Notes: a model not told the origin generated them from the sequence alone. Shown: positions 3,900 through 61,996, numbered from the stretch's first letter. The stretch: DNA of 64,000 nt from Chitinophagaceae bacterium (GCA_043778255.1 JAYWGN010000054.1:73613-137612); one strand, 5' to 3'. Made by a program: numbers and translations.

Positions 3900-4901
3900 A
3901 TGATAGAAACCCAAATAGACAGTTTAAAAGATTATAAATACATCGACCTCTTTGCAGGTATTGGCGGATTTCATTATGCATTAAAATCTTTTGGAGCTAA
4001 ATGTGTTTTTGCTTCTGAATGGGACAGTTATGCCTCTAATACTTACTATAGAAACCATAACCTAAAACCAAGTGGTGACATAACTCAAATTGAAGAAGAT
4101 AGCATACCAAAACATGATATTATTTGTGGTGGCTTTCCTTGTCAAGCATTCTCAATTTCGGGGAAACAGAAGGGTTTTGAAGATACAAGAGGAACATTGT
4201 TTTTTGATATAGCAAGGATAATAAATAAACATACACCTAAAGTTTTATTTTTAGAAAATGTAAAAAATTTAATTAAGCACGATAATGGCAGAACAATAAT
4301 TACTATTATCAATTCGCTTAAAGAAATTGGGTATAACGTACATTACAAAGTACTGAATGCAAGTAATTTTGGGCTTCCACAAAATAGAGAAAGGGTTTAT
4401 ATTGTTGGCTTTCATAAATCATTGAAATCAGAGAATTTTCAATTTCCTAAGTTATACAATACTAAAGTTTCTTTATTAGACATATTAGAAGAAAACCCAA
4501 AAAACACTAAGATAGTAGAACGTGATGACATTCAAATTTATAAAGAAATTTTACCAACTAAATCACTGTTTGAAGATATTGAATTATTAAATAAACCTAT
4601 ACAAATAGGTAAAGTAAACAAAGGTGGTCAGGGCGAACGAATATATCACCCCTTTGGACACTCAATCACCTTATCAGCTTATGGTGGTGGCATTGGTGCA
4701 AAAACAGGATTATATTTGATTAAAGGTAAAGTAAGAAAATTGAGTACTAGAGAATGTGCTAGGCTTCAAGGATTTCCTGAAGATTTCATAATAAATCCAA
4801 TACAAACTCAGGCATACAAACAGTTTGGAAATAGTGTATCTATAAATGTACTTCAACATATTTTGAAACAAATAACTAGTGTACTAAAAGATAATGAATA
4901 A
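3900..4901 (+). CDS. DNA (cytosine-5)-methyltransferase (Dcm family; Type II R-M modification subunit, M.HpaII-like by recollection)
   Basis: Motif I FAGIGGF, motif IV GGFPCQAFS, motif VI ENV, motif VIII QNRERVYIVG, motif X QFGNSV. Codon usage is more AT-rich than the neighbouring genes. Confidence 0.9.
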   Translation: MIETQIDSLKDYKYIDLFAGIGGFHYALKSFGAKCVFASEWDSYASNTYYRNHNLKPSGDITQIEEDSIPKHDIICGGFPCQAFSISGKQKGFEDTRGTLFFDIARIINKHTPKVLFLENVKNLIKHDNGRTIITIINSLKEIGYNVHYKVLNASNFGLPQNRERVYIVGFHKSLKSENFQFPKLYNTKVSLLDILEENPKNTKIVERDDIQIYKEILPTKSLFEDIELLNKPIQIGKVNKGGQGERIYHPFGHSITLSAYGGGIGAKTGLYLIKGKVRKLSTRECARLQGFPEDFIINPIQTQAYKQFGNSVSINVLQHILKQITSVLKDNE

Positions 4902-5643
4902 AGAACAATTATTAGGTTCACAAACTGCAAAAAATGGATTTATTAATGAAGATGATATTGTTAATAAATTTAATGATTGGGAAAATGATGACGATGCAAA
5001 AAAATGGCTGTCAATCATGCAATACAAATTAAAAGATATTGAATTTGTAAGAGCAATTAAATTGAGTGGTTTTAAAACTGATATTCAAGCACAAGTTACA
5101 ATTAAGTTAAAAAATGCAATAGATCTTCAAAATATACAAGTAAAATTAGTTAGTAATTTAAAAGGGTTTAATCAAATTGATAAGAGATGGGTAGCTAAGT
5201 ACATTGATATGTGGAATATTCCAAAAAAAATTGTTTCCATTTTAAAAAGATATACGGGAGAAATTTTACCTACTATTTTGAATCCCAAAGACAAACGAAG
5301 AATGTTTGCATACGAGTTTGACAAAAAGGAACAATCTTTAATTTTGAAATGGTTAAATGAGAACAAAGCTCTAATTGTAGCAGACATATTAAAAGGCAGG
5401 GGACAATTTGCAGCAGAATGGACTCTTGTTGCACAAAAACTAAACACTAACTCAAGATGGGTACTTAAGCCAATGAATTTTTGTATGAATTATTTTGGAA
5501 ATGGTAATATAGAAATTACTAAAAGAGGTAATTTTAAAATTGGTAGAATAACGATGCAACGTAAAGGTGGCGACGGAGGAAGAAATACTGCAAACATGTT
5601 ACAATTTAAGCTCAACCCTGCCGAATTATTTGACAGCGAATAA
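4894..5643 (+). CDS. Putative Type II restriction endonuclease (cognate of upstream C5-MTase); possibly MspI/HpaII-like (CCGG) - unverified
   Basis: 249-aa ORF overlapping the MTase stop by 8 nt (ATGAATAA), same strand and operon. No recognisable housekeeping domain, and the position is typical of an R subunit. C-terminal ...GGDGGRNTANMLQFK resembles my recollection of the R.MspI C-terminus. Confidence 0.45.
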   Translation: MNKEQLLGSQTAKNGFINEDDIVNKFNDWENDDDAKKWLSIMQYKLKDIEFVRAIKLSGFKTDIQAQVTIKLKNAIDLQNIQVKLVSNLKGFNQIDKRWVAKYIDMWNIPKKIVSILKRYTGEILPTILNPKDKRRMFAYEFDKKEQSLILKWLNENKALIVADILKGRGQFAAEWTLVAQKLNTNSRWVLKPMNFCMNYFGNGNIEITKRGNFKIGRITMQRKGGDGGRNTANMLQFKLNPAELFDSE

Positions 5644-16837: not shown

Positions 16838-16922
16838 TGGTTTAATTAATAATTATTAATTAATAATTATTAATTAATCTGAGAATTATGTAAATAAAAC
16901 GATACCATAACCTTTGTGAAAC

Positions 16923-18782: not shown

Positions 18783-19092
18783 AATATTATTTTATTAAAT
18801 TTTTTTTAAAAATGGAAACTTCATTTATTTTAAATGGCTGTAACAAAGCTATTGATTCACCCCAACCACTACCACGGGTGGATTGGGAGAAATCATTTGA
18901 AGAAATGCATATTAACGGTGATGACAATTTGATGATGCCTGATATATTTGTTGATGAAAAATTTGAAGAATGGGAGTAGTTTTCCTTTTTTATTTTTTTT
19001 AGGCCAAGCCTTTCTAAAAAAGGGTTAAAATAATTTTCCACTCCCACAACTCACTTATTATTAATTATTCATTATTAACTATAACTTTCTAC

Positions 19093-38736: not shown

Positions 38737-39642
38737 TTGTGTATGGCTATACCTAATACTTATTATAATGAGTTTGTAATGTACCTTACTACCGAAAGGC
38801 GGTACAGCCACCATACTATAAGAGCTTATAGCGACGATATAACTCAGTTTTTCGACTTTATGGAACTTACTTATGGTATGCTACCAATAACGGAAATAAA
38901 GGCTAGTTTAATACGTAGCTGGCTAAGTACACTAAAGGAACAGCAAAATACTGCCAAAACTATAAACAGAAAAATATCGACCTTAAAAACATACTTTAAG
39001 TACTTACAAATTAAGCAAATAATAGTAACCTCACCGTTGCAACATATTATAAGCCCCAAAATTAGTAAGCGGTTACCCCAATTTGTGGCCGAAGCTGATA
39101 TAAAAACATTACTGCAAGAGGTGGAATTTGCCCCTGAATTTGAAGGGCAATTACACCGAGTAATACTCTACATTTTTTATTATACAGGTATGCGGCTAAG
39201 CGAATTGCAACAACTACAACTTACCAATATTGACTTGCAGAGCAATACCCTTAAAGTATTGGGCAAAGGCAATAAAGAACGACTGTTGCCTATACAACAA
39301 GCATTGCAAAATGCCCTTACAAATTATACCCTACAACGAGCCACACTGCCAATTATAATTGATACAAACTATTTGTTACTTACCATAAATGGTAAAAAAT
39401 TGTATGCCAAATATATATACAATGTGGTAACCCAATACCTAAGCAAAGTAACTACTATAAGTAAAAAAAGCCCACATATACTACGCCATACATTTGCCAC
39501 ACACCTTACAAGTAATGGAGCCGAACTTAATGCAGTAAAGGAGTTGCTAGGGCATAGCAGCCTTGCCGCTACACAAATATATACACATAACAATATTGAA
39601 AGGCTTAAAAACATTCATAAAAAAGCCCACCCCAAAGCATAG
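38737..39642 (+). CDS. xerC: Tyrosine site-specific recombinase XerC/XerD-like
   Basis: 301 aa; catalytic region RHTFATHL...GHSSLAATQIYTH (R..H-x-x-R...Y); the rpsU-xerC linkage is a conserved Bacteroidetes arrangement. Confidence 0.8.
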   Translation: MCMAIPNTYYNEFVMYLTTERRYSHHTIRAYSDDITQFFDFMELTYGMLPITEIKASLIRSWLSTLKEQQNTAKTINRKISTLKTYFKYLQIKQIIVTSPLQHIISPKISKRLPQFVAEADIKTLLQEVEFAPEFEGQLHRVILYIFYYTGMRLSELQQLQLTNIDLQSNTLKVLGKGNKERLLPIQQALQNALTNYTLQRATLPIIIDTNYLLLTINGKKLYAKYIYNVVTQYLSKVTTISKKSPHILRHTFATHLTSNGAELNAVKELLGHSSLAATQIYTHNNIERLKNIHKKAHPKA

Positions 39643-39802
39643 GGGATAGGTATATATTTATTTGACATATCTATAGTTAAGTAATTACACCGAGTTTATA
39701 TTTTTTTGGAATATTTAATATTAGTTCACTTAAATTACATTAATTTGAGTGAATGTTAATTATAAAGTTCTAAGTTTGTAACTTCGCTAAAATTTTTAGT
39801 TT

Positions 39803-40894
39803 ATGAAAGTAGTTTCATTTTTTGCAGGTGCAGGTGGTCTTGATTTAGGATTTGAAAAAGGTGGCTTTGATGTAGTCTGGGCAAATGAATATGATAAAGA
39901 AATATGGGAAACCTATGAAAAAAATCATAAAAATACAATCTTAGATAGGCGTTCAATTGTTGATATACCTTCCTCTGATGTTCCTGATTGCGATGGAATC
40001 ATTGGTGGCCCACCTTGTCAAAGTTGGTCTGAAGCTGGTTCTAAAAAGGGTATAGCCGATAAAAGAGGTCAGTTATTTTATGAGTTTATGAGAATTCTTG
40101 CTGATAAGAAACCTAAATTCTTTCTTGCAGAAAATGTATCAGGTATGTTGTTGCCTGCACATAAAGAAGCATTATCTAACATAAAACAAATGTTTCAAGA
40201 TATTGGTTATACTTTGTCTTTTCAATTATTAAATGTGTCTGACTTTGGAGTGCCACAAGATAGAAAAAGAGTTTTTTTTATTGGTTATAGAAATGATTTA
40301 AAATTAAGTTTTCAATTTCCATTACCTACAACTTTAGAAAATAAAATAACTTTAGAAAAGGCAATAGGAGATTTAAAAGATACTGTCTTACCTGCAAAAG
40401 AAAATAATTTAACAAATGGCAATGAATGTAGAGTAGCTAACCATGAATATATGATTGGTGGCTTTTCTTCAATCTTTATGTCCCGTAATAGAGTTCGTTC
40501 TTGGGACGAAGTTTCATTTACAATTCAAGCTGGTGGTCGTCATGCACCGATACACCCACAAGCACCTAAGATGAAATTTATTGAGCAAAATCTTCGTGAA
40601 TTTGTGAAAGGAAAAGAAGACTTATATCGTCGCCTTTCTGTTAGAGAGTGTGCAAGAATTCAAACTTTTCCTAACAGTTTTATTTTTCATTATAAAAGTG
40701 TTGTTGCTGGTTACAAAATGATTGGCAATGCAGTTCCTGTTCGTATGGGTAAGGTTTTAGCAAGTAAAATTTTTAATGATTTATCAAATATAAAAGTTGA
40801 GAAAAAAGAAGTTAAAATTATAAAATCAAATTTCCTCAATGGTCATACAGTTCGTGAAAGAATGCTTGAAATTGTAAATGCAGTAGCCCAATAA
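39803..40894 (+). CDS. DNA (cytosine-5)-methyltransferase, M.HaeIII-like (GGCC-family by similarity from memory)
   Basis: Motif I FFAGAGGLDLGF, motif IV GGPPCQSWS, ENV, QDRKRVFFIGY, GNAVPV. Long collinear similarity to M.HaeIII as I recall it (CDGIIGGPPCQSWSE.GS..G..D.RG.LFYE..RIL, NHEY.IG..S.IFMSRNRVR.W.E..FT.QA.GR...HPQAP.M, LYRRL.VRECAR.Q.FP..FIFHY.S...GYKMIGNAVPV). Confidence 0.9.
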   Translation: MKVVSFFAGAGGLDLGFEKGGFDVVWANEYDKEIWETYEKNHKNTILDRRSIVDIPSSDVPDCDGIIGGPPCQSWSEAGSKKGIADKRGQLFYEFMRILADKKPKFFLAENVSGMLLPAHKEALSNIKQMFQDIGYTLSFQLLNVSDFGVPQDRKRVFFIGYRNDLKLSFQFPLPTTLENKITLEKAIGDLKDTVLPAKENNLTNGNECRVANHEYMIGGFSSIFMSRNRVRSWDEVSFTIQAGGRHAPIHPQAPKMKFIEQNLREFVKGKEDLYRRLSVRECARIQTFPNSFIFHYKSVVAGYKMIGNAVPVRMGKVLASKIFNDLSNIKVEKKEVKIIKSNFLNGHTVRERMLEIVNAVAQ

Positions 40895-40897
40895 ATT

Positions 40898-41869
40898 ATG
40901 CCAAAAGAAGCCAAACAAACTAAGACTGGTAAAGCATTTGAATTTGCTTTGCTTAATTTATTTTTAGAACGTTTAGAAATTAAAACTTCTGTTACTGTTG
41001 TCAAAAATGAACCTTATAAAACAGCAAAAAAATGTTTTGAAAGTTTTAAGGAAACTGAAAAGGGCTTATACAATTTAAATGCAAGTTTTGCAGTAAATTT
41101 TCTTATTGATTTAGAACCTCGACTTTCTAATGGCATAAATAAGAATGATATTTTGCAACTTGAAATTGTTTCTGATAAGCAAGGTCAAATCGGCGATGTT
41201 AGAGATGTCTTAGCAATTCGGTCTTTACAAAAATGGGAGATAGGTATTTCTGCTAAAAATAATCACAGAGCTGTTAAACATTCTCGACTTTCAAACGATA
41301 TTAATTTCGGTGAAAAATGGCTTGGAGTTTCTTGTTCTCAAAATTATTTTGCTGAAATAAAACCAATATTTGAAGAGCTTGCAAAACTTAGAACTGCAAG
41401 TAAAGCAACACAAAAATGGTCAACTCTTGGAGACTATCATACTTCTGTTTATGTTCCAATATTAAATGCTTTCAAAAAAGAATTACTAAAGCTTGATAAT
41501 GAAAATTTAGAAACTGTTGCACAAAATTTAGTTCAATATCTAATTGGAAATCAAGATTTTTATAAAGTTATAAAAGGAAATAATAAAGTCGAAATTCAAG
41601 CCTATAATTTACATGGAACTTTAAATTTGGCTTTTGATAAAATAAAATCTAAAATTAAAGTCCCTAAATTAAAACTTCCCAACCGCTTAATCGAAGTGGT
41701 TTTTCAAGATAATTCGCAAACAACTTTGTTGGTTACTTTAAATGAAGGTTGGCAAATTTCTTTTCGTATTCATAATGCAAGTTCAAGGATTGAACCTTCT
41801 TTAAAGTTTGATATTAATTTAGTTTCTGCTCCGCATACACTTTTCGCAAATCATCTTACATTAGGTTAA
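40898..41869 (+). CDS. Putative Type II restriction endonuclease (cognate of M.HaeIII-like MTase)
   Basis: 323-aa ORF starting 4 nt after the MTase stop, same strand, AT-rich, no housekeeping motifs; operon position typical of an R subunit. Confidence 0.45.
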   Translation: MPKEAKQTKTGKAFEFALLNLFLERLEIKTSVTVVKNEPYKTAKKCFESFKETEKGLYNLNASFAVNFLIDLEPRLSNGINKNDILQLEIVSDKQGQIGDVRDVLAIRSLQKWEIGISAKNNHRAVKHSRLSNDINFGEKWLGVSCSQNYFAEIKPIFEELAKLRTASKATQKWSTLGDYHTSVYVPILNAFKKELLKLDNENLETVAQNLVQYLIGNQDFYKVIKGNNKVEIQAYNLHGTLNLAFDKIKSKIKVPKLKLPNRLIEVVFQDNSQTTLLVTLNEGWQISFRIHNASSRIEPSLKFDINLVSAPHTLFANHLTLG

Positions 41870-53784: not shown

Positions 53785-55713
53785 ATGTCAACCAAACAGC
53801 CAACCAACTATGGGGCTTTAAGTACTCTTGTAACCGTATTCTTTTTTTGGGGATTTATAGCAGCAGGTAACAGTGTGTTTATCCCTTTTTGCAAACACAA
53901 ATTTGATTTAGATCAGTTTCAAAGTCAGCTAGTTGATACTGCCTTTTATTTTGCTTATTTTATTGGTGCATTAGTATTGTTTGCTGTAGGTGCATCCAAA
54001 GGTAACGACCCAGTTGCAAAGTGGGGTTTTAAAAAGAGTATAGTGTACGGTTTGTTATTTTCGGCATTTGGTGCTGCCATTATGATAATAGCTGTAAACC
54101 TTGGTACTTTTCCGGGTATGTTAGCAGGTCTATTTGTAGTAGCATTGGGGTTTAGTTTGCAACAAACAGCTGCACAGCCTTTTTCCATAGCTTTAGGCGA
54201 CCCTAGTACAGGCACAAGCCGAGTTACATTGGGCGGTGCTATTAACTCATTTGGTACTACCATTGGGCCGTTAGTTGTAGGTATTGCTTTATTTGGTACT
54301 ACTGCTGCCATTACCGACGAAAAAATTGCTACCCTTAGCCTTAGTAAAGTAATATTATTATACAGTTGTGTTGGTGCATTATTTATTGGTGCAGCTATTA
54401 TGTTTTACAGCAGCAAAAAAGTACCAAGTGGTATAAGTAACGAAAAAACAGAACCTGCCAACAAAGCATTATACACCTTGTTAATGATGACAGGGTTACT
54501 AGCTATAATGTTTGTTCCGGTATTTAAAAGTTATACATCAACTGAGGCAAACAAAATGGATAGGTTAGAAAAATTAAACGGAGCTATATCAAAAAATATT
54601 GATTCGGTACTCAAAGTAACCTTACAACCACAAGGAAAAGATACTGCATTTGTAAAAGGTTTTTTAAAAGATAAAAAAGAAACCGTAATAGTAGCACAAC
54701 TAGACTCTTTAAACAAAGCTTATGCCTCTAATGCTACAGCAGTAGCTAACCTTGGTAGCATAACATCAAATAGAGCCACAATTACCTCAACAGAAAAAGA
54801 AATACAAACATTAAAATATCCACTTGAAAGTTATAGATTAAAATGGTTGTTAGGAGCATTTGGTATAGTGGTATTGGGTTTGGTATTTGCTAATAGGGCA
54901 GCACAAAAGGTAGAAACAGGGTGGGGCGCCATGAAATATCCACAGTTAGTATTGGGCATGTTAGGCATATTCTTTTATGTAGGTGTAGAGGTTACAGTAG
55001 GCAGCAACCTTACCGAATTATTAAAGCACGAAGGCTTTGGGCAACTCACCTCATCACAAGCCACACCTTATGTAGCTATGTATTGGGGTAGCTTAATGAT
55101 AGGGCGTTGGGCAGGTGCCGTAGGTGCATTTGGCTTTAGCAAACAAAAGCGAATTATACTACAATTAATAGTGCCATTTATTGCCTTTGCCATATTAATA
55201 GCGGTTAACAGTGCATTTGGGTACGATATGCAAAAACTATACTGGTATGTAGCTTGTGTAGTAATTCAAATAGGTGCATTTTTTGTGAGTAACGAAAAGC
55301 CAGCAAGAACATTACTCATATTTTCGTTGCTAGGCGTAGCTGCTATGGTAGTGGGTACCTTAACTACCGGTACAGTAGCCATTTATGCATTTTTAAGTGG
55401 TGGTTTATTTTGCTCTATTATGTGGCCATGTATATTTAGTTTATCAGTAGCTGGCTTAGGCAAATACACAACACAAGGTTCGGCTTTTTTAATAATGATG
55501 ATATTAGGTGGCGGCATTATACCTCCTATACAAGGCAAGGTGGCGGATTACTTACAAGCAAGTTCCACAGTTGATGGCTACGGCATACATGCCTCTTATT
55601 GGATTGCCGCTGCTTGTTACGCCTACTTAGCCTTTTTTGCTTACATAGTAAAAGGAATATTAAGTAAGCAAGGCGTTAATTATGACGTAAGCAGCGATGC
55701 AGCAGGACACTAA
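53785..55713 (+). CDS. MFS transporter of the FucP / glucose-galactose permease type with a ~110-aa hydrophilic central insertion
   Basis: 642 aa; 12 TM helices in two 6-TM halves separated by a soluble segment (~aa 250-360); followed by a ROK kinase. Confidence 0.65.
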   Translation: MSTKQPTNYGALSTLVTVFFFWGFIAAGNSVFIPFCKHKFDLDQFQSQLVDTAFYFAYFIGALVLFAVGASKGNDPVAKWGFKKSIVYGLLFSAFGAAIMIIAVNLGTFPGMLAGLFVVALGFSLQQTAAQPFSIALGDPSTGTSRVTLGGAINSFGTTIGPLVVGIALFGTTAAITDEKIATLSLSKVILLYSCVGALFIGAAIMFYSSKKVPSGISNEKTEPANKALYTLLMMTGLLAIMFVPVFKSYTSTEANKMDRLEKLNGAISKNIDSVLKVTLQPQGKDTAFVKGFLKDKKETVIVAQLDSLNKAYASNATAVANLGSITSNRATITSTEKEIQTLKYPLESYRLKWLLGAFGIVVLGLVFANRAAQKVETGWGAMKYPQLVLGMLGIFFYVGVEVTVGSNLTELLKHEGFGQLTSSQATPYVAMYWGSLMIGRWAGAVGAFGFSKQKRIILQLIVPFIAFAILIAVNSAFGYDMQKLYWYVACVVIQIGAFFVSNEKPARTLLIFSLLGVAAMVVGTLTTGTVAIYAFLSGGLFCSIMWPCIFSLSVAGLGKYTTQGSAFLIMMILGGGIIPPIQGKVADYLQASSTVDGYGIHASYWIAAACYAYLAFFAYIVKGILSKQGVNYDVSSDAAGH

Positions 55714-55772
55714 ATAATAATTTTTAATGTTCAATTAATATTTGTCAATTATTAGTTGTTAAATATAGCCGT

Positions 55773-56741
55773 ATGAAACAAAAATTAGCAATAGGAATAG
55801 ATATTGGTGGCACTACCACCAAATTTGGGGTGGTTGATACTAATGGTGCTATATTGGTACAGGATAGAATACCCACCAACATACACGAAGAAGTAGGTGA
55901 ATTTATAGAAGACCTATACCCTAAATTAATGCCCTTAATTACTGCTTATGGCGGCGTTACCAAATTTGTAGGTATTGGTATAGGTGCACCTAATGGCAAT
56001 TACTATAAAGGTACTATTGAGTATGCTCCAAACCTAAAGTGGAAGGGCATTATACCTATTGCAGAGTTAATACAAAAACGATTTGAGCTTACTACCAAAC
56101 TTACTAACGATGCCAATGCAGCCGCCGTTGGCGAAATGATGTATGGTGCAGCCAAAGGTATGCAGGATTTTATAACCATAACCTTAGGCACAGGTGTAGG
56201 TAGCGGTATAGTTACCAATGGCAAAGTTATATATGGACACGATGGCTTTGCTGGCGAACTTGGGCATACTATTATAAGGCCAGGTGGCCGTATGCACAAA
56301 GGTACTGGTATGCGAGGCAGCTTAGAGGCTTATGCAAGTGCCACAGGTGTACGAGAAACCGCCATAGAATTACTAACCGATTACCCCGAAAAGGAAAGCC
56401 TACTCCGCAACTACACCATTAACGACCTTACCAGTGAAAGTGTGTATGAGTGTGCCATGCAAGGCGATAATATAGCCAACGAAATATTTGAATACACAGG
56501 GCAAATATTGGGCGAATCGTTAGCCAACTTTATAATGTTTAGCAGCCCCGAGGCAATTGTATTATTTGGCGGACTTACCAAGGCTGGCGACTTGCTACTT
56601 AACCCAACACGGAAGCACATGGAGCTAAATTTGTTACCCATATTTCAAAATAAAATAAAGCTACTGTACAGCCAATTGCAAGAAGCCGATGCAGCTATAC
56701 TAGGAGCAAGTGCATTGGTATGGAAACATAGCTCGTTGTAG
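55773..56741 (+). CDS. ROK-family sugar kinase (glucokinase / N-acetylglucosamine kinase-like)
   Basis: 322 aa; N-terminal IGIDIGGTTTKFGVVD ATP-binding motif; ROK family signature. Confidence 0.8.
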   Translation: MKQKLAIGIDIGGTTTKFGVVDTNGAILVQDRIPTNIHEEVGEFIEDLYPKLMPLITAYGGVTKFVGIGIGAPNGNYYKGTIEYAPNLKWKGIIPIAELIQKRFELTTKLTNDANAAAVGEMMYGAAKGMQDFITITLGTGVGSGIVTNGKVIYGHDGFAGELGHTIIRPGGRMHKGTGMRGSLEAYASATGVRETAIELLTDYPEKESLLRNYTINDLTSESVYECAMQGDNIANEIFEYTGQILGESLANFIMFSSPEAIVLFGGLTKAGDLLLNPTRKHMELNLLPIFQNKIKLLYSQLQEADAAILGASALVWKHSSL

Positions 56742-57175
56742 TACTTGAGAGTAAACTTATATTTAAAATACTCCAACTTCAAATTTATAAGTGCCCTGAT
56801 TAGTGGAGTAAGAACACACTTGCCTCACTTGTATTAGTTATATAAAAATCTATTAAGTTTTAATTATTAATATTGTCCCGAGTATTCGGGATTATTAATT
56901 ATTCACTATTAATTATTAATTATTTTGGGGCTATAAGCAGCAAACCTTTATGCAGCTTATGTTCACCGCCCATTACATAAACCTACAGCCTTCGGCTTAG
57001 TAGGTGTTATTCCATTAAGCGGTGCAGCCAGTGGGCAGTATAATTTCAATTAAGCTTTTTGGTTTCAGTAATATTTAGTTTGTTACTATAAAACAAATTA
57101 TACGAAATTTCCAGCCTCGCCATTGTTGGAATGTCGAAGCCTTCCAACAACAATAAAACAAGTTTCAATTAGATA

Positions 57176-57242
57176 TTCCGTCTCGGTAGGGTCTTGTGGT
57201 TTACCGGATTTGGCGGTACAGGCTTCGCCCAAGACCCTACCG
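57176..57242. repeat. R1 repeat element copy A (31 bp, ttccgtctcggtagggtcttgtggtttaccg) embedded in a nested hairpin
   Basis: Outer 13-bp perfect inverted repeat cggtagggtcttg / caagaccctaccg, with an inner TACCG/CGGTA stem. A second copy of the 31-mer (3 mismatches) lies at 58403-58433, with a partial third copy at 58388-58404. Confidence 0.75.
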
Positions 57243-57373
57243 TAAAGTTAACTTTGCTTATTTTAATTGAATAAAATTAGTAATTTTAATTATAAAAAGA
57301 TTTAAGTGATAAACGTTAGGGTCTCGGCAAGAACCGAAGAACCAACGGAACAAAAGTAATTTTTAAGAAGTGG

Positions 57374-57404
57374 GCAGAGCCCAGCACTAGAGTTACTTTT
57401 TTCA
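57374..57404. repeat. R2 repeat element copy A (gcagagcccagcactagagttacttttttca); second copy at 59193-59223
   Basis: 31-bp near-identical sequences (3 mismatches) flanking the TA/XRE/ORF6N gene block. Confidence 0.75.
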
Positions 57405-57442
57405 TAGACCAGCGGCAGTAGAATCTTTTTTTATGTGTAAGG

Positions 57443-57700
57443 TTAGTAATGATTTTGGCAGGCAATTATTTTAATGTAAGCATCTGCAACACGATATACT
57501 AGTCGATGTTCGTCATTTATGCGTCTGCTCCAATAACCTTTAAGGTCGTGTTTTAGAGCTTCGGGTTTGCCAATGCCATCAAACGGAGTACGAGCCGTTT
57601 CAATAATTAATTTTTGTAATCGTTGGTATAGTTTTTTATCAATAACAAGCCATTGGTTATACTGTTCAAAAGCGATAGGCGTAAATTGTATATCCAGCAT
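57443..57700 (-). CDS. yoeB: YoeB/Txe-family toxin (mRNA interferase)
   Basis: 85 aa; ...ARTPFDGIGKPEALKHDLKGYWSRRINDEHRLVYRV...IIACQNHY matches YoeB almost position by position. Confidence 0.85.
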   Translation of the reverse strand: MLDIQFTPIAFEQYNQWLVIDKKLYQRLQKLIIETARTPFDGIGKPEALKHDLKGYWSRRINDEHRLVYRVADAYIKIIACQNHY

Positions 57701-57921
57701 TATTCGGTAATATTAGCAGTAATAGACTTTCCATTTTTATCTTGCTCTATAGATTGTAAAAGCATTGCTTTATTAGCAGGATTAGCCATTAAAAAAGCCG
57801 TTTCATCGTCTTCCACTTCAATGGTAAGTTTAATTGGTTTAGATTTAAAAGCGGCTTTAATTGCATCAATAACATCAGTGTTTATTTCTTGCGCCGAAGC
57901 TAAATGATAAGTAGTGTACAT
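57700..57921 (-). CDS. yefM: YefM/Phd-family antitoxin
   Basis: 73-aa acidic protein immediately upstream of yoeB, stop overlapping the toxin start by 1 nt. Confidence 0.75.
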   Translation of the reverse strand: MYTTYHLASAQEINTDVIDAIKAAFKSKPIKLTIEVEDDETAFLMANPANKAMLLQSIEQDKNGKSITANITE

Positions 57922-57933
57922 AATATAAATTTT

Positions 57934-58269
57934 TTAATGATCGTATGCTTGTTTTGTTTTATGGTCTGTAACAATAGTATCCAAAAAGTTGTCAACTGCT
58001 TTTTTAGTATCTCCTGAAAGTTGTTGAAAAACTTCAAATTTTTTCAATAATTCTTTGTCTTTAATTTCTATATTATTATCGTTTAATAAATAGTTGGAAG
58101 AAACCCCAAGTGCATCCGCAATTAATTTAAACGCATCGGCTGGCGGCATAGAAGAACCCAGTTTGTATCGAGACAAAATTTTTAAATTAACCGTAGATTT
58201 TTCTGCAAGGTTTTTTTGCGATAATTCCTTTCTTTGCCTAGTCAATCTAATTTTTTCTGCAATAGTCAT
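57934..58269 (-). CDS. XRE-family helix-turn-helix transcriptional regulator
   Basis: 111 aa; HTH LSQKNLAEKSTVNLKILSRYKLG; heads the minus-strand three-gene block. Confidence 0.8.
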   Translation of the reverse strand: MTIAEKIRLTRQRKELSQKNLAEKSTVNLKILSRYKLGSSMPPADAFKLIADALGVSSNYLLNDNNIEIKDKELLKKFEVFQQLSGDTKKAVDNFLDTIVTDHKTKQAYDH

Positions 58270-58402
58270 AATATGGAATTTTAGGTGTTATTTATCCAAC
58301 AACTGCGACTAATAAGACAAAGTTAAGAAGATATGCATAATTAATTCTCAAAAATAGGAGTAATTAACACCCAAATATTACACTTTTCGTCTCAGTGGGG
58401 TT

Positions 58403-58433
58403 TTCCGTCTCAGTGGGGTCTTGTGATTTACCG
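58403..58433. repeat. R1 repeat element copy B (ttccgtctcagtggggtcttgtgatttaccg) plus an adjacent partial copy at 58388-58404
   Basis: See copy A; here only the left arm is present, and duplicated. Confidence 0.7.
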
Positions 58434-58585
58434 CATTATGCAGTAACCCGAAGATTCCAAAGAACCAGAAAATTTTAAAAGAAGACTTTAAAAACTATTA
58501 TCCATTTTAAGTTTTATCTTCATAAGATTAAAACAATTGAAATGGCTAAAAAGAATTACCTGTATTAATAGTATAGCAAAGAATA

Positions 58586-59098
58586 TTGAATAAAATATTT
58601 ATCTTACATGGTGATAAAGTAATATTTGATAGAGATTTAGCAGAAATGTATGGAGTTTCTACTAAAGTTTTTAATCAAGCTGTTAAAAGAAATATAGAAC
58701 GATTTCCTAAAGACTTTATGTTTACAGTAAGTGAAAAAGAATGGGACAACTTGAGGTCACAAATTGTGACCTCAAGTTGGGGTGGTGCAAGATATCGTCC
58801 AAATGTGTTTACTGAACAAGGCGTAGCTATGTTATCCAGCATTTTAAATAGTGCTATTGCAATTCAAGTAAATATAAGTATTATACGAGTGGTTACCAAA
58901 ATGCGGGAATATGCCTCAACGCATAAAGATATTTTAATAAAACTTGCCAAACTTGAAAAAGAGGTAAGTAATAATAGCAATAATTCACAAAAGAACAGCC
59001 AAGACATTGAAAGTATATTTATGGTATTAAAAGAGCTATTAGAAAAAGGCAGTAAACCAGTAGCAAGAAATAAAATTGGGTTTAAACTTTACGATTAA
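58586..59098 (+). CDS. ORF6N-domain (KilA-N-like) protein
   Basis: 170 aa (TTG start in the ORF track). N-terminal ...DRDLAEMYGVSTKVFNQAVKRNIERFPKDFMF...VTSSWGGARYRPNVFTEQGVAMLSSIL is typical of ORF6N proteins found in Bacteroidetes mobile elements and phages. Confidence 0.7.
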   Translation: MNKIFILHGDKVIFDRDLAEMYGVSTKVFNQAVKRNIERFPKDFMFTVSEKEWDNLRSQIVTSSWGGARYRPNVFTEQGVAMLSSILNSAIAIQVNISIIRVVTKMREYASTHKDILIKLAKLEKEVSNNSNNSQKNSQDIESIFMVLKELLEKGSKPVARNKIGFKLYD

Positions 59099-59192
59099 TT
59101 CAATTTAAAAATCGGTAACAATTAGTCCATAATAGTGCTTACTTTCAAATACTGTATAAGTAGTACAGTCAAGTACAATTTTTACAAACTAA

Positions 59193-59223
59193 GCAGAGCC
59201 CAGCAGGAGTGTTACTTTTTTCA
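59193..59223. repeat. R2 repeat element copy B (gcagagcccagcaggagtgttacttttttca)
   Basis: See copy A at 57374-57404. Confidence 0.7.
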
Positions 59224-59307
59224 AAAGCTAAAAAAAATGGGTTTAAGTAAAACAATTTGATTTAAAACTTCAAGAATGTACTTTCACTTTTTTAAAAACT
59301 AACTAAC

Positions 59308-59793
59308 ATGAAATTTTTATTATTTTTATTTACGACCATTTTATTAAGTTGTGCTAACAATACTGACGGTTTAATTGGCTCAGTTAATGATAAAAGTAAA
59401 GCAATTAAAGATGGCTTTTACGTTTGTGATTATGTACCAAGCAAAAAAGTCTTTAAATTGCTTGATGGAAATATTTTAGTAATTGACACGGCTTGGGCTG
59501 AATGTAATTTTTACTTAAAGAGTGGTAAAAAAATTATAAATGCCAATTTGGGGTATGTAATAAATATTCCATACAACACGTCTATTAAAAATAAATATGC
59601 TATTGACTTTGTGTTAGCTAATAAAAATAATCAAATGTTTTCTCATCCATTTGGTACTTATTTTATTGGCTTATGCCCCAAGAAGTTAGATAAATACATT
59701 GCAGTTATTTTAGTTGAAAGAAATCCAGACTCTACTTTAGGATGGAAAGAACCCATAACAACTGATACATTTTATCTTAAAAAAATGAATTAG
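59308..59793 (+). CDS. Hypothetical lipoprotein
   Basis: 161 aa; lipoprotein signal MKFLLFLFTTILLSC. Confidence 0.5.
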   Translation: MKFLLFLFTTILLSCANNTDGLIGSVNDKSKAIKDGFYVCDYVPSKKVFKLLDGNILVIDTAWAECNFYLKSGKKIINANLGYVINIPYNTSIKNKYAIDFVLANKNNQMFSHPFGTYFIGLCPKKLDKYIAVILVERNPDSTLGWKEPITTDTFYLKKMN

Positions 59794-60008
59794 TAAATAA
59801 GGTTTAACTTTTTTATTTCAAAATATCTATTTTAATACCGTATGGACAGTATTGGCGATAGTAATTTTGGTAGTATTTGGACGACCCTAGCCCCAGTGTT
59901 ATTTTTTATTATTCACCAATAGCAAATAGGCTAAAAAATAATACACTGTATTTTTTTGTAAAAAATGTGTTAGCTTTTATAACTATTTTTGCAGCTTATA
60001 ATACTACT

Positions 60009-61229
60009 ATGAAATCGTTTGAAGTTCCCTTATTTTACAGAAGCCCACTTATAAGTGCCATAAAAAAATACCATAAAGAAAACGATAAACTCAAAAAAGA
60101 TTTTACACCCACCTTGCTCAACTTTGGTACTGTACAAATATACTTGGCTAGGCATTTTGGATTTTGCTATGGTGTGGAAAATGCCATTGAAATAGCCTTT
60201 AAAACAGTGGCTGAAAACCCAGGTAAAAATATTTTTTTGCTAAGCGAAATGATACACAACCCACAAGTAAATGCTGACTTGCAAGCCAGTGGTGTACAGT
60301 TTCTGCAAGATACGTATGGCAATGAACTGATTAATATAGCTACCCTAACCAACAAAGATATTGTACTAATACCTGCATTTGGTACTACCATTGCTATTGA
60401 AAATAAATTGAAAGCCATAGGCATACCCATTGAAAAATATGATACTACTTGCCCCTTTGTAGAAAAAGTATGGAATCGTAGCGAAGCTATTGCACAAAAG
60501 GGTTACACGGTAGTAATACACGGCAAACCAACACACGAAGAAACAAGAGCCACATTTAGCCATAGTGCTGTACACACACCTACTGTGGTGGTAAAAGACA
60601 TGGACGAAGCAAAAATATTGGCCAAATTTATAAATGGAACTTTACCGATGGCTGCTTTTTTTGAAATGTTTACTAACCAATACAGCGAAGGGTTTGACCC
60701 TCAATTGCATTTACAAAAAATAGGTGTAGTAAACCAAACTACTATGTTAGCCGAAGATACCCAAGCTATTGCCGATTATTTAAAACAGGCTATGGCACAG
60801 CATTTTGGCGAAGCCAATATAAAAAATAACTTTGCCGATACTAGAGATACACTATGCTATGCTACTAACGATAACCAAGCAGCCGTAAAAGGACTGTTGC
60901 AAACTACTGCCGATTTGGCTATAGTAGTAGGCGGTTATAACAGTAGCAACACCTCACACTTAGTAGAACTATGCGAACTGCAATTGCCTACCTATTATAT
61001 AAGTAGTGCAAGCAAAATAATAAATGAAAATGCTATACAGCACTACAATTTTCATACTAAGCAAGAGGCTATTACCGAAAACTATTTGCCTCACCATAAC
61101 CCTACAAAAATATTGATAACTAGTGGTGCTAGCTGCCCCGATGCAATGGTGGAGCAGGTTATAGCCAAATTGCTTACCTACTATACAACCAATGTAACCT
61201 TGCAACAACTTGCCGAAGCTTACAATTAG
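60009..61229 (+). CDS. ispH: 4-hydroxy-3-methylbut-2-enyl diphosphate reductase
   Basis: Start moved to ATG 60009 (MKSFEVPLF). IspH motif ARHFGFCYGVENAIE plus additional Cys ligands. The exact start is uncertain because the N-terminal extension is long. Confidence 0.8.
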   Translation: MKSFEVPLFYRSPLISAIKKYHKENDKLKKDFTPTLLNFGTVQIYLARHFGFCYGVENAIEIAFKTVAENPGKNIFLLSEMIHNPQVNADLQASGVQFLQDTYGNELINIATLTNKDIVLIPAFGTTIAIENKLKAIGIPIEKYDTTCPFVEKVWNRSEAIAQKGYTVVIHGKPTHEETRATFSHSAVHTPTVVVKDMDEAKILAKFINGTLPMAAFFEMFTNQYSEGFDPQLHLQKIGVVNQTTMLAEDTQAIADYLKQAMAQHFGEANIKNNFADTRDTLCYATNDNQAAVKGLLQTTADLAIVVGGYNSSNTSHLVELCELQLPTYYISSASKIINENAIQHYNFHTKQEAITENYLPHHNPTKILITSGASCPDAMVEQVIAKLLTYYTTNVTLQQLAEAYN

Positions 61230-61288
61230 TATTGTATTAACAAGCCTTTACACTCAATATAATTATATTTGCACAAAAATAAAACCTA

Positions 61289-61996
61289 ATGAAATATTTA
61301 TTACTACTAACCTTAATAATAGGTGCAATAAACACATTTGCCCAAAAAACAAAAATAGCCATACAAGGTGGCATAAACCTTAATAGCATTAATTGGAAAG
61401 ATAATGACCCAACCAATACCCAATCCGATAGTTCGGATTACTCATTTACCAAAACAAGTGGTAAGCAAGGCTTTCATGTTAACTTGGTAGTGGATATACA
61501 TACCGAAGAAAATTATTATTTTGAAACGGGCATTGGTATTACAAAAAAGGGTGGAAAAACCGATGAAACTACCACCTTGCAGCCCGGTAGTGTTAACTTT
61601 AAAAGAGTACAATACTTTAGCCCAACTTATATAAGAGTGCCACTATACCTAGTGTACATGCCCGAAATAAAAAAGAAGTATAAGTTTACAGCTGGTGTTG
61701 GTGCACATATAGCATTTGGCGTTGGTGGCAAAACTGAAAAGTCGACTACTATAAATGGTGGTGCTATAAAAAAACAAAATTATAAAGCTAAGTTTGGCGT
61801 TAATAGCAGCGACGATTTTAAAAGTACAGATATTGGCGTTGGCGCCAAAATAGGATTTATAATGAGTGATAATATTTCGTTTGGGGCAAGTTACGAAAGA
61901 AGCATATTTAACAATGCACCCAAAACAATTGAGCGGACTAACAATGCTTTATTTAGCACAATTGGATTATCAATTACCAAATATATACGACGTTAA
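61289..61996 (+). CDS. Outer-membrane beta-barrel protein (porin-family)
   Basis: 235 aa; signal peptide MKYLLLLTLIIGAINTFAQ; beta-strand periodicity. Confidence 0.5.
   Translation: MKYLLLLTLIIGAINTFAQKTKIAIQGGINLNSINWKDNDPTNTQSDSSDYSFTKTSGKQGFHVNLVVDIHTEENYYFETGIGITKKGGKTDETTTLQPGSVNFKRVQYFSPTYIRVPLYLVYMPEIKKKYKFTAGVGAHIAFGVGGKTEKSTTINGGAIKKQNYKAKFGVNSSDDFKSTDIGVGAKIGFIMSDNISFGASYERSIFNNAPKTIERTNNALFSTIGLSITKYIRR

Follow-up and report, generated by a model that had tools for sequence, protein, structure and literature searches.

Is a compact block of accessory genes one undescribed system or several unrelated ones? This question is raised by a 3.3-kb islet of five genes (56742-60008) between the genes for a ROK kinase and ispH in a 64,000-nucleotide stretch of DNA from a Chitinophagaceae bacterium (GCA_043778255.1, JAYWGN010000054.1:73613-137612; hereafter the window, whose numbering is used throughout). 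An initial annotation had placed an XRE regulator, a YefM-YoeB toxin-antitoxin (TA) pair, an ORF6N protein and a lipoprotein between ROK and ispH, and all five genes are there. It had read them as a decayed mobile element or as an addiction or defence module, possibly a single undescribed system. The accessory status, the decay (the ORF6N gene has lost its start) and the addiction and defence genes are borne out by our analysis; the single system is not, as the gene families recur separately.

The islet is probably a mosaic, partly decaying, in which three independent accessory modules have gathered at a poorly conserved junction: an xre-antitoxin-yoeB operon, an ORF6N gene and a lipoprotein gene. 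In the loci examined, no relative of the XRE-TA, ORF6N or lipoprotein family was found beside either of the other families. Because each family recurs without the others, and because the homology of the XRE-TA module to its relatives ends before the ORF6N gene, the islet is better read as three separate modules than as one system. All three families occur in the same kind of place, the variable ends of Bacteroidota loci associated with recombinases or with Rhs/polymorphic toxins: open reading frames (ORFs) with an Rhs core flank an ORF6N homologue (locus L085) and XRE homologues (L120, L123-127). The islet would be a 'junkyard' of selfish and defensive modules, each acquired on its own. In itself it is of little weight, one more small low-GC (guanine plus cytosine) patch at a variable junction that carries genes for addiction, defence and immunity, here in an uncultured Chitinophagaceae-like bacterium.

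The islet is accessory and lies at a synteny breakpoint

The window is contained in a 116.7-kb metagenome scaffold (ENA ERZ28574377, BUSI22-1 scaffold_34), with identical copies in two Logan assemblies. Its ROK kinase (55773-56741, + strand) reaches no more than 81% identity with those of Chitinophagaceae/Ferruginibacter-like metagenome-assembled genomes, so the source is a member of the Bacteroidota without a close sequenced relative in the collections searched. For synteny, the ROK neighbourhood was compared over 10 kb downstream in 80 Chitinophagaceae/Bacteroidota genomes with a ROK orthologue (64-81% identity), referred to below as the related genomes. The MFS-ROK gene pair upstream of the islet is conserved across these 80 genomes. 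Downstream of ROK the relatives vary, often with a small lipoprotein gene and lipA, and islet genes and ispH were found within the 10 kb in none of the 80. GC content is 0.31 in the islet, 0.35 in the window and 0.38-0.42 in the flanking housekeeping genes. Given this low GC and the absence of any islet gene or ispH downstream of ROK in all 80 relatives, the islet is accessory, and its five-gene order, which the initial annotation had proposed to compare with that of relatives, is not core.

Judged by gene order, the site is a general synteny breakpoint, a poorly conserved chromosomal junction. As ROK and ispH are never neighbours in the relatives examined, an insertion between adjacent housekeeping genes is not demonstrable. 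The initial observation that integrase, transposase and flanking tRNA genes are missing stands: none of the five islet proteins matched an integrase or transposase family, and a tRNA/tmRNA scan found none in the whole window. The sole match in the window to a tyrosine-recombinase query (39391-39588) falls in a XerC/D-like gene (38743-39642) about 17 kb from the islet. Hallmarks of an integrative island or prophage (an integrase, a tRNA target) were thus not found; direct repeats of the D2 family, described below, do flank the TA module and are only 77% identical. Searched against phage and plasmid collections, islet DNA gave matches limited to the ORF6N and YoeB coding parts.

A putative three-gene addiction operon

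The first module reads from the XRE gene through the antitoxin gene to yoeB, all on the - strand. The XRE regulator (57934-58269, 111 amino acids) is RstR-like, with HTH_19 (E = 5.8e-9) and HTH_3 matches, and scores 76.4 bits over its full length against the NCBIfam RstR phage-repressor model (cut-off 80). Its gene heads the putative operon and ends 12 nt before the antitoxin gene (57700-57921, 73 amino acids), which in turn overlaps yoeB (57443-57700, 85 amino acids) by 1 nt. The toxin is a YoeB (PF06769, E = 2.4e-32; TIGR02116, 99 bits against a cut-off of 51.8); the ParE model reached only 0.0021 with it and fails its cut-off. It aligns with residues 8-84 of E. coli YoeB (2a6q_E) and keeps GKPE, EHRLVY and the C-terminal HY, which we take to hold the catalytic residues. 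By this alignment YoeB is apparently intact.

Calling the pair YefM-YoeB was right for the toxin and half right for the antitoxin. Antitoxin residues 39-71 match the C-terminus of YefM, its toxin-binding end (PDB 2a6q_A residues 52-84), and the NF008499 match is likewise confined to residues 39-73. Beyond this segment the name does not hold: the protein has no Pfam match even at E<=10, its first 38 residues show no known family or DNA-binding domain, and the N-terminal dimerisation and DNA-binding domain of Phd/YefM was not detected.

Relatives of the XRE gene show what travels with it. Where the XRE proteins are 86% identical (L097-L100), the same order of XRE, 73-amino-acid antitoxin and YoeB follows, with the 12-nt gap kept; DNA identity with L097 is 86% over window positions 57605-58387, and the homology ends at 58387, short of the ORF6N gene. 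Where they are 64% identical (L101-L106), an unrelated pair of the Unstab_antitox/ParE type stands behind the XRE gene, again at a 12-nt gap. This pattern suggests that TA pairs are swapped, cassette-like, behind a fixed XRE gene. An N-terminal module common to both antitoxin types was considered and rejected, as no alignment between them was obtained. In L097 (4303-4461), the closest XRE-TA relative, yoeB is shortened to 52 amino acids at the equivalent of window position 57605; the toxin gene is decayed, the XRE and antitoxin genes are intact.

YoeB is a ribosome-dependent mRNA endonuclease that is freed once its labile antitoxin is no longer replenished. In the islet, the XRE protein would repress the xre-antitoxin-yoeB operon, the 73-amino-acid antitoxin would neutralise YoeB through its YefM-like C-terminus, probably without binding DNA itself, and release of YoeB on antitoxin loss would stabilise the DNA that carries the module. 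We therefore describe xre-antitoxin-yoeB as a candidate three-gene addiction operon under presumed XRE control. A three-component TA system of this order, paaR2-paaA2-parE2 of E. coli O157:H7, was reportedly described by Hallez et al. in 2010. There, a CI-like regulator heads the TA pair and the antitoxin lacks a DNA-binding domain (PMC8630535). The islet module resembles it in its regulator-antitoxin-toxin order, its CI/XRE-like regulator, its antitoxin without a recognisable DNA-binding domain and its mobile-element setting. It differs in having a YoeB toxin instead of ParE, a Bacteroidota host and a regulatory role of XRE that is predicted, not demonstrated; a ParE-type pair, as in paaR2-paaA2-parE2, is nevertheless found behind the 64%-identical XRE relatives. 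Compared with a YefM-YoeB system, the clear YoeB toxin, the upstream antitoxin gene with its 1-nt overlap and the YefM-like antitoxin C-terminus are shared, whereas the 73-amino-acid antitoxin without a detectable Phd/YefM N-terminal domain and the additional leading XRE gene are not. The module would thus extend the three-component design of paaR2-paaA2-parE2 to the Bacteroidota and to YoeB.

A solo ORF6N gene with a damaged 5' end

The second module is the ORF6N gene (58586-59098, + strand, 170 amino acids from a TTG codon; PF10543, E = 3.5e-33; GC 0.32). Its product consists of a complete ORF6N domain followed by a predicted coiled-coil tail, and residues 1-166 match positions 13-175 of the 177 in PDLC04856, the PADLOC model of the phage-defence candidate PDC-S05 (E = 4.2e-55). 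The protein had been listed among the uncharacterised parts of the islet, a description that this full-length match and the truncated 5' end of the ORF replace. In the proposed PADLOC search, the only other matches among the islet proteins were to generic HTH models, and the lipoprotein matched nothing. ORF6N also matches PHROG anti-repressor families, including PHROG 4792. Its predicted structure was unreliable (mean predicted local distance difference test score, pLDDT, 42).

Homologues are abundant: all 8000 candidates scored reached E<=1e-10, so that this number is a lower bound. Many are chromosomal and 70-76% identical, and those examined at this identity stand singly between unrelated housekeeping genes; in IMG/VR, at least 92 viral contigs also have relatives, at identities of at most 55%. 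DNA homology with other genomes runs from the old ATG to about 15 nt past the stop codon. Homologous proteins have 178 amino acids and start with MAKKELQ, and the TTG at 58586 corresponds to their Leu16, so that 15 original N-terminal codons are lost. The relic of this 5' end is visible at 58543-58585 (+ strand) in a DNA alignment with L093, L094 and L085, as an ancestral ATG at 58543, a 1-nt deletion and an in-frame TAG. As read from this alignment, a frameshift and a stop codon have abolished the original start; the gene may be expressed from the internal TTG, or it may be an early pseudogene.

One PDC-S05 member, with an RhuM domain, reduced plating of phages T7, T5 and T4 10- to 1000-fold in E. 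coli (bioRxiv 10.1101/2024.09.26.614923). The window protein shares with this family a full-length hidden Markov model match and occurrence as a single gene in variable contexts; it differs in that the tested member had a Virulence_RhuM domain, whereas the window protein is an ORF6N domain with a coiled coil, and is damaged at its 5' end. We regard it as a solo gene, encoding a DNA-binding/coiled-coil protein of the PDC-S05 candidate family, with a putative role in defence.

In locus L085 (4811-8419; also L086-L092), a XerC/D-like recombinase is split into three ORFs of 99, 183 and 73 amino acids, downstream of which the same strand carries an ORF6N homologue, a 312-amino-acid ORF with an Rhs core and a C-terminal domain, and a 98-amino-acid ORF. 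ORF6N is here the first gene of an orphan toxin/immunity locus associated with a recombinase. The 73-amino-acid ORF upstream of the ORF6N homologue was considered as an antitoxin and rejected, being a fragment of the recombinase.

A lipoprotein gene of a probable immunity family

The third module is a gene for a lipoprotein-like protein of 161 amino acids (59308-59793, + strand, GC 0.27) with a signal peptide followed by LLSC. The family is rare. A word-based search of 5.8 billion proteins recovered just one 98%-identical variant, and an exhaustive HMMER search found 35 cluster representatives among 1.84 billion, which have the motifs IDTAWAE and GW..P..TDT in common. No match was found in Pfam, NCBIfam, PHROGs or PADLOC. 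The AF2 model (pLDDT 88) is a beta-sandwich.

The positions of relatives are telling. The gene of a 39%-identical homologue (P0124, L096) starts 30 nt past the stop of a 323-amino-acid ORF in which a C-terminal domain joins an Rhs-associated core (TIGR03696, 9e-16); this ORF is itself preceded by another Rhs-core ORF and a lipoprotein gene, the layout typical of toxin-immunity pairs. A 34%-identical homologue (P0122) lies in an array of small same-strand genes with 13 copies of a repeat of about 215 nt between them. Other family members stand among small lipoprotein genes, or alone beside ffh. In the 64-kb window no Rhs-core match was found, and no toxin gene adjoins the lipoprotein gene. Because its relatives follow an Rhs toxin gene or sit in a cassette array, the window lipoprotein is probably an orphan immunity protein against a polymorphic (Rhs-type) toxin that acts in the periplasm. 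It would be exported to the periplasmic face of a membrane, where it would bind and neutralise the incoming Rhs-type toxin domain of a competitor. On the positions of its relatives we propose that this rare family confers immunity to polymorphic toxins.

Recombinase-associated arrays of orphan immunity genes are known from Bacteroidales as rAID-1 (Ross et al., bioRxiv 10.1101/471110). The islet resembles them in its small, low-GC exported protein without a cognate toxin, whose relatives stand behind an Rhs toxin gene or in a repeat-separated array, and in its two co-directional low-GC genes (ORF6N, 0.32, and lipoprotein, 0.27, both on the + strand). It differs in that 56742-60008 contains neither a XerD-like recombinase nor an intergenic unit that is convincingly repeated, in its environmental, Chitinophagaceae-like host as opposed to gut Bacteroidales, and in that an immunity role is proposed here from gene context.

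The array with P0122 (L107 1-11757, JGI 3300025731 Ga0209396_1003997; the same array occurs in L108-L110) encodes GNAT acetyltransferases, DUF4349 and DUF6000 proteins and unknowns, and its repeats hold conserved hairpins (AACAACACC...GGTGT; GCCAAATCTTTTAATTTGGC). No recombinase was present on the part fetched. By its layout the array looks integron-like or rAID-like.

A palindrome conserved within ORF6N genes

Inside the ORF6N coding sequence lies a perfect 16+1+16 palindrome, CAACTTGAGGTCACAA-A-TTGTGACCTCAAGTTG (58747-58779), which encodes NLRSQIVTSSW and is the longest perfect inverted repeat of the islet. Its hairpin has a predicted energy of -24.8 kcal/mol on either strand. We surveyed 84 homologues (L023, L085, L093, L094, L128-L207) sharing 34-77% protein identity, of which 80 come from viral contigs, 3 are cellular and 1 belongs to a related genome. 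In nearly all of the 84 the best palindrome of the whole gene is at the same position, with arms of 12-16 bp at a fixed codon position. The arms vary by paired changes (GGTCAC/GTGACC, GGTGCC/GGCACC, GGTTCC/GGAACC, GGGGTATCACA/TGTGATACCCC), and these compensatory changes alter the encoded residues.

When 31 distinct sequences were aligned with MAFFT, 87% of cells paired, a figure that falls to 20-41% once the partner is slid, and both sides have changed in 11 of the 14 pairs. The covariation score is 0.336, compared with 0.116 in shuffles, and none of 500 shuffles reached it. The palindrome helix was the only consensus structure returned by RNAalifold. Randomisation among synonymous codons never attained the observed score in 17 of the 31 sequences. 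These patterns suggest that the palindrome is kept by selection on the nucleic acid and is not explained by synonymous-codon choice. It may be an operator to which a dimer binds, or a structure formed in mRNA (a hairpin) or in single-stranded DNA; the data fit all three. No further copy of the ORF6N palindrome, as a possible operator, was found in the window. A literature search of incomplete coverage found no paper that mentions it.

Whether ORF6N/PDC-S05 genes in general hold an undescribed cis-element, kept across cellular and viral homologues, is in our judgement finely balanced, with the odds falling slightly short of even; an attached and weaker proposal is that the repeats D1 and D2, described below, mark boundaries of recombinase-driven immunity or defence cassettes outside the Bacteroidales. 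If the palindrome is functional, each ORF6N gene would be a self-contained module of a protein plus a site, and the site could be a recombination site, an operator for the dimeric protein, or a hairpin in mRNA or single-stranded DNA through which expression is gated. The palindrome might then explain how PDC-S05, a common defence candidate, is controlled or triggered. It offers a testable handle on this very abundant family of phage-defence candidates.

Non-coding DNA and two repeat families

The spacers within 56742-59870 sum to 1315 nt (701+12+316+209+77), matching the 1.3 kb of non-coding DNA reported initially. The first of them, nc1 (56742-57442, 701 nt), has no ORF of 50 amino acids or more and contains several stable hairpins, one copy of each repeat family (D2a and D1a) and an AT-rich 21-nt tandem repeat. 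Its segment 56920-57250 folds at -97.2 kcal/mol (z -4.6 relative to shuffled sequence) into four hairpins. The non-coding stretches had been called RNA-like; a search of Rfam 15 gave 0 matches at E<=1 in 55500-61500, and no relatives were found in fetched loci, viral contigs or JGI metagenomes. A promoter and terminator scan yielded no excess over shuffled sequence. Pseudogene remnants were sought in the spacers by tblastn with the genes downstream of ROK in relatives and by tblastx against all loci, and nothing was found beyond the conserved XRE promoter region.

As first reported, two families of 31-nt repeats occur, each core with two copies that agree at 28 of 31 positions; no other copy of either core exists in the window, and 0 are expected from shuffled sequence. 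The D2 copies (57162-57218 and 58389-58445, both + strand) are 77% identical over 57 nt. The 57 nt of D2a provide the 5' arm of a hairpin with a 13-bp stem (57162-57243; -32.7 kcal/mol, z -4.25), whereas D2b (58389-58445) forms a weaker hairpin and begins where the XRE-TA homology stops (58387). The D1 pair (57358-57404 and 59177-59223) is 83% identical, with a local alignment z of 10.6. D1a (57354-57404, + strand) lies 40 nt past the yoeB stop and forms an A/T-flanked hairpin (-18.2 kcal/mol, z -3.4) that could be a bidirectional terminator; D1b (59173-59223, + strand), 75-80 nt past the ORF6N stop, folds poorly. Along the islet the order is thus D2a-D1a, TA operon, D2b-ORF6N-D1b, an arrangement that would fit scars of duplication or insertion. 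The D1 and D2 cores were also sought in every locus fetched, the 80 related genomes among them, and in contigs of IMG/VR and of JGI metagenomes; only the source organism contained them. In the mosaic, D1, D2 and the hairpin-rich spacers would be junction, terminator or scar sequences of the insertions and deletions that assembled the islet.

Several other readings of the repeats were tried. A third D1 copy at 59864-59910, upstream of ispH (62%), was rejected as not significant (z 0.5-1.4). D2 has a + strand frame encoding SVSVGSC(G/D)LP in which two of three differences are synonymous, and was dropped as a small ORF for want of a start codon and with two copies only. Mobilisation of the D2 hairpins as PATE or REP elements (IS200/IS605-like or RAYT-mobilised) was left as speculation, again with two copies only; no Y1 transposase match was obtained among the islet proteins, the only window proteins screened. 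A RAYT fragment adjoins an XRE homologue in another locus. Compared by eye, the ends of D1 (AAGTAAT...GTTACTT) are unlike the attC core sites RYYYAAC/GTTRRRY, and no IntI is present.

Alternative explanations

Against the three-module mosaic we weighed three other accounts. The islet might be the decayed immunity (lysogeny-switch) region of a prophage or integrative element, in which XRE is a CI/RstR-like repressor, ORF6N forms the anti-repressor or Cro side, a TA pair was inserted behind the repressor gene and the lipoprotein is a moron, that is, an accessory prophage gene. This is a reasonable account, for which the full-length 76.4-bit RstR score, the PHROG anti-repressor matches of ORF6N, the divergent XRE and ORF6N genes around a 316-nt control region, the ORF6N relatives on at least 92 viral contigs and the integrase beside other XRE homologues all speak; paaR2-paaA2-parE2 is located in just such a region (PMC8630535). 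We nevertheless think it unlikely. XRE and ORF6N are adjacent in none of the relatives examined, homology to the nearest XRE-TA module stops before ORF6N, and the closest ORF6N homologues (70-76%) are solo chromosomal genes, with viral ones at 55% or below. Phage structural, replication and integrase genes and an att-like tRNA are likewise missing from the islet. A smaller chance still attaches to a miniature or eroded cassette array, rAID-1- or integron-like, that has lost its recombinase, with ORF6N and the lipoprotein as cassettes and D1 and D2 as degenerate recombination or promoter repeats between them. The idea is attractive in view of the 13-cassette array of P0122 with its repeats of about 215 nt, next to which the 209- and 215-nt lengths of spacers nc3 and nc4 are suggestive, and of L085, where an ORF6N homologue is the first gene past the broken XerC/D-like recombinase, with Rhs C-terminal-domain and immunity genes behind it; the idea also fits the co-directional, low-GC ORF6N and lipoprotein genes and the placement of D1 40-80 nt past the 3' ends of two genes. 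It fails on recombinase and repeats: the nearest XerC/D-like gene is 17 kb off, each repeat has two copies with no significant third copy of D1, the L107 repeat has no sequence in common with the window spacers, and the TA operon is on the opposite strand.

Least probable of all, and in our view very much so, is one compact undescribed defence or abortive-infection system with XRE as sensor or regulator, ORF6N and the lipoprotein as effectors and structured RNAs derived from the spacers. Tight clustering, low GC, genes of defence and addiction type, the restriction of D1 and D2 to the islet and a hairpin-rich spacer (z -4.6) would agree with such a system, yet every family recurs apart from the others, the ORF6N gene is damaged at its 5' end, PADLOC recognises a single-gene candidate and generic HTH proteins, and the non-coding DNA has no Rfam match and no relatives in fetched loci, viral contigs or JGI metagenomes. 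The mosaic of three modules has difficulties of its own. The TA pair was found in only two lineages of the XRE family, and more distant XRE genes (62-65% identical) lack it and adjoin integrase, RAYT-fragment and Rhs toxin genes. ORF6N and XRE are transcribed divergently, so that joint action is possible, and the anti-repressor-like annotation would fit it. The origin of D1, D2 and the 700-nt nc1, with two copies of each repeat and without relatives, is unexplained, and with the closest available genomes at about 80% protein identity a recent gain or loss of the islet is not datable. These points weigh against the mosaic, which remains the reading we favour.

Flanking sequences and other low-GC islets

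Downstream of ROK, a terminator-like hairpin (56875-56892, + strand) is followed by the AT-rich 21-nt tandem repeat (56891-56925, family D3), which has one more 21-nt unit in the ENA scaffold copy (L081). The AT-rich motif ATTATTAATTATTCACTATTAATTATTAAT occurs just past gene 3' ends at 56891-56925, 16845-16876 and 19057-19078, and also in L094 (3203-3238), a locus of another member of the Bacteroidota. At the other end of the islet, the ispH ORF was called with 450 amino acids from a TTG at 59877. Because the LytB domain begins at residue 88 of these 450, the likely start is the ATG at 60009 (406 amino acids), and the first 44 residues of the called ORF are probably not translated. On this call the spacer upstream of ispH, nc4, spans 59794-60008 (215 nt). 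A TAnnTTTG-like motif (TATTTTTG, about 59981-59988) precedes the ATG.

Elsewhere in the window, a C5-methyltransferase-like gene and a 323-amino-acid gene, both low in GC (0.29-0.32), stand downstream of the XerC/D-like gene on its strand (38743-41869), and a second low-GC methyltransferase-like pair is found at 3900-5643. From N-terminal motifs and GC content, both regions are probably restriction-modification islets.

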